Shown piece by piece: positions 35,702 through 38,374 of a stretch of 64,000 nt of DNA. The notes under the pieces are model-generated. The model had not been told where the DNA came from, did not search any database, and worked only from the letters and a program-made list of their open reading frames with translations. The DNA lies in the sequence record PQ571289; one strand, written 5' to 3'. Position numbers and translations under genes: made by a program. How positions within the stretch are numbered: position 1 is the stretch's first letter; every line of letters begins with the position of its first letter. This DNA comes from Escherichia phage EF1-1.

Positions 35702-38374
35702 ATGTTTCCAATTCCAATATTTACTATTATGACCAGCACTGGTGTCGTTCCTCTGCCAGCGGGTATTGTTAAAAAAGTAATCACTTTAGATTACCCAGAT
35801 AATGCTGGTAATTCTAATAGCAGTTTAGCAATTTTGCTTAATGATGGTAGATTGTTTACTCAAGGCGCAAACCTTTTTGGTGAGATTGCAGATGGAACTC
35901 GTAGTGCACGATTCAATAATTTCCACTTAGCTTCTACTGTAGTAGCGGATGTGTTTACCGCAGATCGTTGTTTTGTTATTAAAACTAACAGTGGGGGATG
36001 GCAATATTCAGGATTGACAGCAGGATTGGTAGGATCTATAGCAGCAGGTGGTACGGACGCATGTGTAACTACTTGGACCAGCTTTCCATCTGTAATAACA
36101 GGGACTATCTCTTTAGCCAATCTTAAAGAGGTTAAGGGAGGATATAACAACACTCTCTGGTTAATGAATAGTGGTGTTCTTTACGGATCTGGTCAAAACA
36201 CAGTAGGCAGTTTAGGTGCAAGTACTACTAACGAAGTTTCTACTCCTCGTCAGATAACAAGTTCAGCAGTTGCTTTTGATGCAGGTTACAACCAATGCTC
36301 TTATGTCAACAATGTGGGAACCTTGCGTGTTTGTGGAGCTAGTAAAGGTTTAGCAGGTAATAATAACACAACAACAGCTTTTGTCAATGCCATGATATCC
36401 GCTACTGAAACAGTGTATGTCAAAGATTACATCAATACAGTTTCCCAGACAATAGTTGTAGGAGATACCTCCGGTGGCACGGGTACAGTAAACTACTTAT
36501 ATGTTAGGTCTAATACAGAAACAACCTACACTAAACTGGACACCTTTGCAGCAGGTTTCTCAACATGGAAATTTCCACCAAGCCGCCACTCTTTTTTCGT
36601 TGGGATCAATAATTCCTTGTGGGCTATTGGTAAGAACTACACTGCAAACTTAGGTTTGGGGTATGATTCTGCGAGCGGAGATCCACTTCAAGTGGGAAAA
36701 CCAGTTAAACCTGAAGGAGTGGGTTCCTGGGATATAAACAAGCTCACAAGCGTTCATACGCTGAATATGGATGTTACTAATCAATTAGGTTATCAAGGAA
36801 CCTTTTTCGTTTATAATGGAGATATGTATTATTCCGGTATTTGGAAAGATGGGAAAGCCTCTTATCTGTTCAATAGTGGTCTAAACTATAATAAATTCAC
36901 ACCAATAGCAAGCTCCGTGATTACGGGTGATATTCTGGCAACTGGCTTAACTACAGATTCTTTAGGAATTTGTATTGTAGGTGGAACTAAACAGTTGACA
37001 CATTCTGTTAGCCCAGAAGGAGGTAAACTTTTCAATATTAAATACACTTCTTCTGCCCCTGCAAACATGACAATATCATCTACTGGTTTAATGACTTTCC
37101 ATGCAGAAGGTGGTTTTGATGCAGGTATGACAGCCTTAAACGCTGAAGGAACAACTTTATCAGATACCTCTGGAGGATATGCTTCAACATTGAGTGTTTA
37201 CACCCCTAGCTTATCTGCGATGGATGTAGGAACAACACAAACAATGGTAGCAGAAATAACGCCAACAGGAGCAGCAAGCTTACCTGGTATGGTTGTTGAG
37301 TATACAACTACAGATCCTAATGTTGCTACAGTAGATCCTACAACTGGTGTAATAACTGGTGTTGGTGATGGTGGTTGTAGAATTGGTTGCACAGCTACGT
37401 ATCAAGGTGTTGTTACCGCTTCTGATAGTTCTTATTTAACGGTGAACGCTGTTGCGGGAAAGGAGTTAGCTCCATCTCCGAGTAGTAGTTTAACGGTTCT
37501 AAACGGATATTTCAACCACTCGGCAGATGGGGCAATCACGTTCCCAATTTTATCGGGTACTGTCACACCAGCTAACTTTGTAGTTAAGGTGGATGACGTT
37601 GTAATACCTTCAAATAAAGTAATATTTAGAAATAAAGCTTTCTCTACAGTGGATAGTTATCCAGCAGGAGAATATAGACTGGCTATTGAATTTGCAAGTG
37701 CTTCAGTAGTGAATAGTGTTGATGTGTCTATGGAAGCAAATCCAGATCTTTTAGAATTATGGGGCGGCAACAGAATTGGTTATTCTACAAGCCCAGCCTC
37801 ACAATTCTTAAAAGGTTGTGCTAACTTAAGACGAATAACTTCTGATTGTTTTAGTAACACATCTTACACCGGAACATCTATAAGTGGTATCTTCTCTGGC
37901 TGTACAAGTTTGACAGCTATCCCTGAAGGATTATTCAGTGATGCTTTATTTCCTTCAATGACAACAATGTCAAGCACGTTTGAAGGTTGTACATCTTTAA
38001 CATCTATTCCTTCAGATTTATTTAAGAATCTATCAAAAGTTACAAGATATTCTTACACCTTTAAAGATTGCACCTCTCTTGCAGAAGTTCCAGCAGGAAT
38101 GTTTGATAATATTCCAACGAAAGTGACCTCCTTAACAGCTACATTCCAAGGTTGTTTAGCACTTACAGATTTTAATAAAATCTTTAATGACAATCCAGGG
38201 TTAACTGTTTGTGGTAAACGTGGAGCATTATCTTCTTTCTTTAGTGGATGCACAAATCTTACAGGAACAGGAACAACATTAACAAATACATTAGGCGGAG
38301 TAGCTAATAGTTACCTATTCAGGTATTGCACAAAACTTTCTGATTATAACAACATTCCTTCGGGTTATAAATAA
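35702..38374 (+). CDS. Large putative adhesin / receptor-binding protein with Ig-like (Big_2-type) and BspA-type leucine-rich repeats
   Basis: Big_2-like segment 'VVEYTTTDPNVATVDPTTGVITGVGDGG'; C-terminal repeats 'FSGCTSLTAIPEGLF', 'FEGCTSLTSIPSDLF', 'FKDCTSLAEVPAGMF'. Confidence 0.5.
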   Translation: MFPIPIFTIMTSTGVVPLPAGIVKKVITLDYPDNAGNSNSSLAILLNDGRLFTQGANLFGEIADGTRSARFNNFHLASTVVADVFTADRCFVIKTNSGGWQYSGLTAGLVGSIAAGGTDACVTTWTSFPSVITGTISLANLKEVKGGYNNTLWLMNSGVLYGSGQNTVGSLGASTTNEVSTPRQITSSAVAFDAGYNQCSYVNNVGTLRVCGASKGLAGNNNTTTAFVNAMISATETVYVKDYINTVSQTIVVGDTSGGTGTVNYLYVRSNTETTYTKLDTFAAGFSTWKFPPSRHSFFVGINNSLWAIGKNYTANLGLGYDSASGDPLQVGKPVKPEGVGSWDINKLTSVHTLNMDVTNQLGYQGTFFVYNGDMYYSGIWKDGKASYLFNSGLNYNKFTPIASSVITGDILATGLTTDSLGICIVGGTKQLTHSVSPEGGKLFNIKYTSSAPANMTISSTGLMTFHAEGGFDAGMTALNAEGTTLSDTSGGYASTLSVYTPSLSAMDVGTTQTMVAEITPTGAASLPGMVVEYTTTDPNVATVDPTTGVITGVGDGGCRIGCTATYQGVVTASDSSYLTVNAVAGKELAPSPSSSLTVLNGYFNHSADGAITFPILSGTVTPANFVVKVDDVVIPSNKVIFRNKAFSTVDSYPAGEYRLAIEFASASVVNSVDVSMEANPDLLELWGGNRIGYSTSPASQFLKGCANLRRITSDCFSNTSYTGTSISGIFSGCTSLTAIPEGLFSDALFPSMTTMSSTFEGCTSLTSIPSDLFKNLSKVTRYSYTFKDCTSLAEVPAGMFDNIPTKVTSLTATFQGCLALTDFNKIFNDNPGLTVCGKRGALSSFFSGCTNLTGTGTTLTNTLGGVANSYLFRYCTKLSDYNNIPSGYK

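Follow-up and report, generated by a model that had tools for sequence, protein, structure and literature searches.

Among described repeat proteins, those closest to the C-terminal region of the phage protein TfpM1 are the BspA-type leucine-rich repeat (LRR) surface proteins of Bacteroidota and Bacillota (Pfam family LRR_5; e.g., BACOVA_04585, PDB code 4fs7, and a protein of F. prausnitzii, PDB code 4gt6) and the proteins of the DUF285 and TIGR02167 families. TfpM1 is encoded on the + strand, at positions 35702..38374, of a 64,000-nucleotide stretch of Escherichia phage EF1-1 DNA (sequence record PQ571289), called the window below. It differs from the proteins of these families in scoring below the curated cut-offs, in the repeat period of 26-32 amino acids (aa), in the presence of only seven repeats and in the helices of the predicted C-terminal part; unlike in the bacterial BspA-type proteins, which carry a secretion signal or an anchor, the LRR of TfpM1 belongs to a lytic coliphage and is located behind a β-propeller and immunoglobulin (Ig)-like domains. 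The comparisons presented here suggest that TfpM1 serves the virion as an accessory adhesin, probably a monomer, with an exchangeable C-terminal cassette that sets what it binds; the probability of this reading is estimated at about 0.55.

The phage of the window is a Phapecoctavirus (Stephanstirmvirinae), showing 97-99% nucleotide identity to more than 30 E. coli phage genomes. The name TfpM1 was given in a 2025 paper to a protein of '890 or 891 aa', without a domain analysis (PMC12695924). The gene is annotated in relatives as encoding a 'tail protein' or a hypothetical protein, and TfpM1 matches PHROG 11922 'tail protein' over its full length; the gene has thus already been labelled a tail protein gene, while its architecture, the bounded cassette and the two-allele polymorphism have not been described in the papers searched.

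The slot of TfpM1 at the end of the fibre cluster is kept across four genera. In phage PVP-SE1, the same terminal position is occupied by gp40 ('tail protein', 604 aa), which is 38% identical over aa 1-582 and contains the propeller and Ig domains only, without the distal cassette and without the LRR. The rV5-like protein bas50_0041 (BASEL, 1818 aa, 'lateral tail fiber protein with intimin domain'), also in this terminal position, shares 39% identity over the first 195 aa, followed by about 1400 aa of other distal domains, and lacks the LRR. Both proteins have an N-terminal peptide and a propeller homologous to those of TfpM1, and gp27 of rV5 is a counterpart as well. In Justusliebigvirus (phi92-like phages), the proteins of the same locus, inny_122 (939 aa) and its counterpart in ZYD (628 aa), start with MYPIPLF and proceed directly to the Ig pair, which is 58% identical to TfpM1 aa 411-590; the propeller is absent, and some of these proteins have a tip of type B (see below). 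TfpM1 was scored as absent from Justusliebigvirus (PMC12695924) because the propeller is missing there.

LRR arrays placed behind a virion-anchoring domain, as in TfpM1, are also found in other phage lineages with different anchors. The P2-like Klebsiella phage ST16-OXA48phi5.4 encodes gp35 (L011 3547-6573), a 1008-aa 'tail protein I' that appears to combine a homologue of the baseplate protein gpI with a long BspA-like LRR array (seven matching stretches, 32% identity), and LRR/β-helix domains have been predicted in the DUF7941 proteins of phage Goslar (bioRxiv 10.64898/2026.04.21.720040).

Domain architecture of TfpM1

A preliminary description of the gene, made from the sequence alone, had proposed an 890-aa virion-module protein with BspA-type repeats in its C-terminal third, preceded by a Big_2-like Ig domain. 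The proposed open reading frame (ORF) agrees exactly with the ORF listing. AlphaFold 2 monomer models were made for the full-length TfpM1 (predicted local distance difference test score, pLDDT, 85.1) and for its C-terminal part. The full-length model contains five parts, namely a propeller (aa 8-400), two β-sandwiches (410-495 and 498-582), a linker (585-589), a further β-sandwich (598-690) and the repeats (700-890), and the order of domains in TfpM1 is propeller, two Ig domains, linker, β-sandwich and LRR:

35702..38374, + strand: TfpM1 gene, 890-aa ORF with an ATG start, coordinates including the stop codon
35702..35722, + strand: N-terminal heptapeptide MFPIPIF, candidate virion-docking peptide
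35723..36901, + strand: RCC1-like seven-bladed β-propeller, aa 8-400 (Pfam RCC1, PDB sequence matches, Foldseek, AlphaFold 2)
36929..37447, + strand: tandem pair of Big_2 Ig-like domains, at aa 410-495 and 498-582 (Pfam, AlphaFold 2)
37448..37492, + strand: inter-module linker, aa 583-597 (pLDDT <50 at aa 585-589), which holds the 5′ breakpoint 37452/37453
37493..37771, + strand: small β-sandwich, aa 598-690 (AlphaFold 2 C-terminal model, pLDDT 92)
37799..38371, + strand: BspA/DUF285-like LRR solenoid of seven repeats (26-32 aa each), aa 700-890; its C-terminal part is predicted to contain helices, and its C-terminal end is conserved

The propeller makes up the first 45% of TfpM1 and had been missed in the preliminary description; both the repeat signature and the seven-bladed fold of RCC1-like propellers were found in this region. 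The Pfam RCC1 model (PF00415) matched TfpM1 with 23.8 bits (cut-off 21.7) and RLD with E=5e-11; the whole-domain propeller model PF25390 stayed below its cut-off (42.9 vs 150 bits). A sequence search of the PDB returned RPGR, UVR8 and HERC2 for the propeller region, and the PHROGs matches of the N-terminal 400 aa were likewise RCC1-like. The top 41 matches of a Foldseek search with the full-length model against the PDB were all RCC1-like propellers (among them UVR8, the RLDs of HERC1/2, RPGR, RCC1 and RCC2), with E-values from 3.6e-13 to about 5e-8 and target-normalised TM-scores of about 0.43-0.71, the best being UVR8 (E=3.6e-13, target-normalised TM-score 0.70). For UVR8, the HERC2 RLD, RPGR and RCC1, the E-values are 4e-13 to 1e-8 and the target-normalised TM-scores 0.5-0.71 over about 400 columns. 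The predicted structure of this region is all-β, with a pLDDT of about 90.

The propeller is preceded by the heptapeptide, whose residues M1, P3 and P5 are invariant among 34 homologues and whose first four residues have a pLDDT of <50 in the monomer model. Among the forms examined, the pattern M-[FYLI]-P-[IF]-P-x-[FL] is common to those with the propeller and those of Justusliebigvirus. In Phapecoctavirus, Seunavirus, Vequintavirus and Justusliebigvirus, it opens the syntenic gene (window 35702-35722, L004 8956-, L010 2093-, L003 6001- and L002 6001-), the variants including MYPIPLF in the propeller-less Justusliebigvirus genes and MLPIPLL in the gene of the 1818-aa rV5-like protein. Two other propeller-less relatives, P0040 and P0041, start without it. 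Judging by this conservation, the heptapeptide could be a virion-docking peptide.

The Big_2 domain of the preliminary description withstood the hidden Markov model (HMM) search, where Pfam Big_2 (PF02368) reached 36.2 bits (cut-off 22.8) in two stretches, the best at aa 505-565, and the AlphaFold 2 model contains two Ig-like β-sandwiches within aa 410-582. The same region matches the PHROG 'structural protein with Ig domain (head and packaging)'. The repeats do not follow immediately upon the Ig domains; the linker and the β-sandwich of aa 598-690 lie between them. In a Foldseek search, this β-sandwich was matched locally, over 70-90 residues, to small domains found in phage tail proteins, e.g., to the N-terminal region of CBA120 TSP4 (probability 0.96).

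The C-terminal repeats reported as '..F.GCTSLTSIP..LF' are real. Seven copies of the motif [F/L]-x-[G/D/Y]-C are present, at aa 703, 731, 760, 787, 815, 847 and 873 (spacing 26-32 aa), within the last 190 aa and nowhere else in the protein; shuffling the C-terminal 305 aa 20,000 times never gave more than three copies. The repeats take the form F-x-G-C-T-S-L-T-x-I-P (aa 703-890); four units have the full form 'F.GCTSLT.IP..LF', and the last three are degenerate.

The classification of the repeats as BspA-type found no direct confirmation in curated families. The LRR_5 search, proposed as a check in the preliminary description, fails for TfpM1 itself, since LRR_5 (PF13306) gave no match at E≤1 for the whole protein; DUF285 (PF03382) remained below the cut-off (13.3 vs 25 bits, E=0.07), as did the NCBIfam model TIGR02167 of the 'PARCEL' 26-residue repeat (18.4 vs 30 bits), and the isolated C-terminal 305 aa (586-890) matched no Pfam family at E≤1e-3. 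Direct membership of the repeats in these families was therefore rejected, and the BspA-type assignment rests on the homologues and the predicted fold.

The homologues are numerous. A search of an index of 5.8 billion proteins with the C-terminal region yielded 307 homologues, the best outside the TfpM1 family with E=2.8e-56, and an exhaustive HMMER scan revealed 14,377 representative clusters at E≤1e-3, including many giant multi-repeat proteins. Among the 100 closest homologues, LRR_5 was present in 42 (best E 2.5e-13), DUF285 in 22 and LRR_8 in 15, which indicates homology to LRR_5 member proteins; the names of homologues include 'BspA family leucine-rich repeat surface protein' and 'leucine-rich repeat protein [Caudoviricetes sp.]'. 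Matches of homologues to PHD and zinc-ribbon families (PF23011, PF23548) were taken as spurious, arising from the Cys-containing repeat. The consensus of the alignment is a 28-residue unit, FxGCTxLTSIPEGLFxNNxxVTxF, followed by a shared C-terminal 'CTxxSNYxxIPxxxK'.

The AlphaFold 2 model of the C-terminal part (pLDDT 92.2, predicted template modelling score, pTM, 0.89) has an LRR fold, predicted with high confidence, and comparison with solved structures matched its LRR part to LRR proteins only; taken alone, the Foldseek evidence is weak for this region. As judged from homologues and modelling together, the repeats have an LRR fold of the BspA/DUF285 kind and represent a divergent subfamily beyond the reach of curated models.

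Exchangeable C-terminal cassette and its alleles

The part of the gene that encodes the LRR is exchanged as a whole between closely related phages, as a comparison with the type-B phage Schickermooser indicates:

37453..38395, + strand: exchangeable C-terminal cassette, 943 nt (linker, β-sandwich, LRR, stop codon and the first part of the terminator)
38376..38399, no single strand: bidirectional terminator-like hairpin, with the tail-fibre cluster (+ strand) on one side and the replication genes (− strand) on the other (terminator scan, both strands)

The nucleotide identity of the window to Schickermooser is 97.6% from 31702 to 37452; no nucleotide similarity is detectable from 37453 to 38395, and the similarity resumes at 38396, 21 nt past the TfpM1 stop codon, with 97.0% identity. 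The 5′ breakpoint 37452/37453 corresponds to codons 584/585 and coincides with the low-pLDDT linker of the AlphaFold 2 model, and the 3′ breakpoint 38395/38396 falls inside the terminator hairpin. The first 584 aa are 97-98% identical between phages whose last 300 aa are unrelated, and at least five alternative C-termini are found on the conserved N-terminal part:

Class A: β-sandwich and LRR, as in the window
Class B: 300-aa domain ending in GLKYYD
Class C: PKD-like segment and a canonical DUF285 array
Class D: another domain (P0020)
Class E: none, the proteins being 564-609 aa long (propeller and Ig only)

In the phage database, 35 records contain the LRR cassette, those of Phapecoctaviruses and of phages PhiWec188 and PhiWec190 (91% identity); three of the Phapecoctavirus-like records that carry the TfpM1 gene, at 90-99.7% identity, are labelled as Campylobacter phage B15 (MG065650.1), Pseudomonas phage PsgM04F (OR584014.1) and Acinetobacter phage ABPW7 (OP562383.1), and these host labels look doubtful. 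Type B occurs in a similar number of records, including PhiWec179 (98.4%) and Justusliebigviruses. The type-B proteins (Schickermooser_00178, phAPEC8_00180, that of PhiWec179) have the same locus, the same cassette boundaries and nearly the same length as TfpM1 (891 vs 890 aa), but their tip of about 300 aa is unrelated to the LRR in sequence and belongs to a fibre-tip family with solved structures, matching 'Tail fiber protein gp17' (PDB code 9occ, E=2.3e-20) and the head-spike fibre Rcc01080 of the gene transfer agent RcGTA (PDB code 6tb9, E=3e-14). PF03382 (DUF285), which TfpM1 itself fails to match, is carried by other alleles of the same gene (P0021-P0025).

The gene thus combines a conserved, presumably virion-proximal part, a variable recombining part, presumably distal, and a location in a fibre cluster, which are hallmarks of receptor-binding proteins. 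As one phage has a fibre-tip domain in this slot and its 97%-identical sister the LRR, the slot is best read as a receptor-binding one. The suggestion of the preliminary description that the LRR is an acquired module holds in the sense of a cleanly bounded, exchangeable cassette replaced in sister phages by a fibre-tip homologue. As a sign of recent acquisition, base composition is suggestive only: the G+C content is 34.6% in the LRR part (37799-38371), 39.4% in the genome and 43.9% in the type-B cassette (L006 5752-6704), and the deviation of the two cassettes in opposite directions is consistent with separate foreign origins.

In phage Mt1B1_P17, a gene of a 135-aa 'endonuclease' (L001 16701-17108) is located directly 3′ of TfpM1 and is missing in the window (38375-38430); it is likely a mobile homing endonuclease adjoining the cassette breakpoint.

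Natural deletion and fusion variants of the protein were found as well. Two distinct 610-aa proteins, P0310 and P0315 (from contigs of 143 and 147 kb), consist of TfpM1 aa 1-195 and 472-890 joined at a repeated FDAG, and lack aa 196-471, which comprise four blades of the propeller and the greater part of the first Ig domain; P0011 (573 aa) is devoid of both Ig domains. P0039 (396 aa; L015 8001-9191 in contig SRR10359460_34, 98% identical to the window) contains the first 74 aa, with the Tail_spike_N domain, of the fibre encoded upstream, followed by TfpM1 aa 567-890; in window coordinates, 33636-33857 are joined to 37403-38374 via a 3.5-kb deletion at an imperfect 25-nt microhomology. An assembly artefact through exact k-mer collapse is unlikely for P0039, as the microhomology is only imperfect. 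The fusion was seen in a single contig and is an anecdote only, suggesting that in at least one assembled contig the LRR stands behind a spike-docking domain. All the variants are in frame and keep the LRR module, in a search that could not retrieve out-of-frame events.

Relatives of the LRR module extend far beyond this group. P0040 and P0041 (494 aa) comprise the Ig pair, the β-sandwich and the LRR, and are 55% and 52% identical to the window cassette, respectively; P0040 is syntenic, in a 128-kb relative, and a 216-aa gene upstream of it was rejected as a split-off N-terminal part because no similarity was found. More distant copies, with about 32% identity, are encoded by other phages of the phage database, including jumbo phages of Erwinia, Klebsiella and Serratia, Synechococcus phage S-CBWM1 ('putative tail protein') and a Butyrivibrio phage. 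Four of the five metagenomic homologues whose contigs were inspected are located in phage-like contigs and the fifth in an ordinary bacterial chromosome; next to one of them, in a 56-kb phage contig, are ClpP and a tape-measure-type gene (Pfam PhageMin_Tail), and DUF4376 genes lie near two of the homologues. The occurrence of relatives both in phage contigs, including morphogenesis clusters, and in a bacterial chromosome suggests that the module moves between bacteria and phages, and among phages. The remark that LRR domains are unusual in phage receptor-binding proteins is valid for characterised proteins, but not in sequence space, where 21 further phage records, the gpI-LRR fusion and many metagenomic phage contigs contain them.

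Possible role in the virion and alternative explanations

We infer that TfpM1 is incorporated into the virion with the N-terminus proximal and the C-terminus distal, and that it has a binding function whose ligand is a structure of the E. coli envelope. The N-terminal peptide and the RCC1-like propeller would form the constant proximal part, docking to the baseplate or the fibre complex, and the two Big_2 Ig domains would serve as a spacer, followed by the flexible linker. The distal, exchangeable part would be the receptor-binding cassette, composed in the window phage of the β-sandwich and the seven-repeat BspA-type LRR, the repeat surface of which may bind the envelope structure and thus shape adsorption specificity and host range. 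Recombination at the linker and the 3′ terminator would swap the cassettes; in sister phages, this slot contains a tip like that of gp17 and the GTA head spike, a canonical DUF285 array, a different domain or no domain at all. The genomic position agrees with the virion-module placement of the preliminary description: TfpM1 is the final gene of the + strand baseplate/tail-fibre cluster, with the − strand replication genes beyond it.

Published host-factor data are in line with this reading and offer a tentative extension of it. Infectivity of phages PhiWec188 and PhiWec190 was lost on a yhaH mutant and that of PhiWec179, 181 and 186 on an flhD mutant, all five phages needed the WaaT-dependent lipopolysaccharide core, and complementation restored sensitivity (PMC12548472); PhiWec181 and 186 were reported to have identical tail-fibre proteins (PMC12695924). 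The LRR allele (PhiWec188/190) thus correlates with yhaH dependence and type B (PhiWec179) with flhD dependence. Perhaps the LRR solenoid is a genuine receptor-binding domain, of a class not yet characterised among phage receptor-binding proteins, and a natural two- or multi-state cassette switch between the LRR and the lectin-like gp17/GTA-type tip in Phapecoctavirus and 'Wecvirus' reprograms host-factor dependence (YhaH-linked vs flagella), a proposal against which we would place the odds.

Several observations weigh against the adhesin reading or its extension. The Wec correlation is confounded, because the two groups of phages differ in TfpL, another fibre gene, as well, and YhaH is not an obvious ligand of the LRR because it is an inner-membrane protein. 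Per-site variability of the LRR alleles has no clear pattern by repeat register of the kind expected of a hypervariable ligand face, and the mean entropy is slightly higher in the β-sandwich (0.87) than in the LRR (0.69). No collagen or coiled-coil trimerisation segment was seen in the TfpM1 sequence, and TfpM1 is therefore not a classical trimeric fibre; all its domain types usually fold as monomers. The terminator-like hairpin 35663..35682 separates the gene from the upstream fibre gene, and the deletion variants suggest, if they come from viable phages, that large parts of TfpM1 are dispensable. A targeted literature search found no virion proteome of a Phapecoctavirus; a 'proteomics' paper on O177 phages was rejected as virion evidence, being in silico only. 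The listing of the distant counterpart rV5 gp27 in a virion mass-spectrometry table speaks for the adhesin reading, but the detection is weak, with three poor, largely non-tryptic peptides and 3.1% coverage. The 2026 cryo-electron microscopy study of phi92 leaves fibre II unassigned and mentions neither the syntenic gene nor an RCC1, LRR or gp152-like protein.

According to the strongest of the alternative explanations, TfpM1 decorates the virion for its environment, perhaps on the head or neck, its Ig and LRR domains binding mucin glycans or components of animal cells or matrix, in a Hoc-like mucus adherence. On phages, Big_2 Ig domains typically belong to surface decorations that are dispensable (T4 Hoc, phage Ig-like domains), and BspA of Tannerella binds host matrix proteins. 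The match of the Big_2 region to a head-and-packaging PHROG, the homology of the type-B allele to the RcGTA head-spike fibre and the dispensability suggested by the deletion variants point in the same direction, as does the phi92 paper, where gp151, by synteny the upstream neighbour of TfpM1, resembles the head-spike protein of phage Pa223. Such decoration is nevertheless unlikely, as no head fibres have been described for this phage group in the literature examined, the gene is embedded in a tail-fibre cluster, and the turnover of alleles within one genus, together with the differing bacterial host factors, fits recognition of a bacterial surface better than a constant animal ligand.

It is also conceivable that TfpM1 acts outside the virion, as a late soluble protein whose propeller and LRR are protein-binding scaffolds for host-factor capture, anti-defence or release as a decoy. 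Both RCC1-like propellers and LRRs count as generic folds for protein-protein interaction, the upstream hairpin could make TfpM1 a separate transcription unit, a virion tip could hardly reach YhaH, associated with the LRR allele, in the inner membrane, and the targeted literature search yielded no Phapecoctavirus virion proteome. The conserved position at the end of the fibre cluster in four genera, the fibre-tip nature of the alternative allele, the fusion of LRR relatives to a baseplate protein and, in P0039, to Tail_spike_N make this explanation improbable, and a signal peptide-like N-terminus with a charged n-region is not evident in TfpM1 by eye. If TfpM1 proved absent from virions, the finding would shrink to an odd accessory gene.

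A glycan-modifying enzyme or lectin formed by the N-terminal propeller, with the C-terminal cassette as a mere auxiliary anchor, would recall the catalytic or lectin β-propellers of some phage spikes, e.g., endosialidases, and would suit both the conservation across Phapecoctavirus, Seunavirus and Vequintavirus, which is highest in the propeller, and the existence of the short propeller and Ig forms, but it is very improbable, given that the fold matches only non-enzymatic RCC1-like propellers, that hydrolase families were not matched in the Pfam/NCBIfam searches of TfpM1, that the Justusliebigvirus genes without the propeller keep the Ig domains and the tip, and that natural variants drop four blades and retain the LRR.

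Phapecoctaviruses are among the coliphages of the broadest host range and are used in therapeutic and biocontrol cocktails; phage AV125, for instance, infected 84 of 198 E. coli strains producing extended-spectrum or AmpC β-lactamases (ESBL/AmpC) (PMC10844046). The exact boundaries of the cassette and the two common alleles offer a directly testable host-range determinant and an engineering slot. If the cassette-switch proposal is true, a ready-made bounded slot exists for retargeting broad-host-range therapeutic phages, and if the LRR tip binds the bacterial surface, it represents a new fold for phage receptor-binding domains, linked to the large family of BspA-like adhesins.

Neighbouring genes

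The order of genes leading to TfpM1 is wedge, baseplate protein, 353-aa fibre, chaperone, lipoprotein, 1017-aa colanidase spike, 674-aa collagen-like fibre and TfpM1. The features next to it are as follows:

30521-33574: 1017-aa colanidase-like spike, with Tail_spike_N at aa 302-361
33636..35660, + strand: 674-aa collagen-like fibre with an N-terminal Tail_spike_N, context and possible partner of TfpM1
35663..35682, + strand: terminator-like hairpin between the 674-aa fibre gene and TfpM1 (terminator scan), annotated at the same place in Schickermooser

The 674-aa fibre matches Pfam Tail_spike_N with E=1.3e-19 at aa 12-77 and Collagen with E=4e-12. The presence of Tail_spike_N (TSP1/gp66) docking domains in two upstream genes makes a branched complex of several receptor-binding proteins, of the CBA120/G7C type, probable. 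The docking domains of these two genes resemble those of the CBA120/G7C branched tailspike systems, but TfpM1 itself has neither Tail_spike_N nor a β-helix spike body.

Among the − strand genes, the ORF of a family-A DNA polymerase (41572-44904) encodes 1110 aa in the window and in the contig of P0039 (L015); its counterpart is annotated with 865 aa in Mt1B1_P17 and, in phage inny, as 'part I'. The Pfam match of the 1110-aa ORF covers only aa 844-1008, and an N-terminal extension, a fusion or an inserted element is possible.

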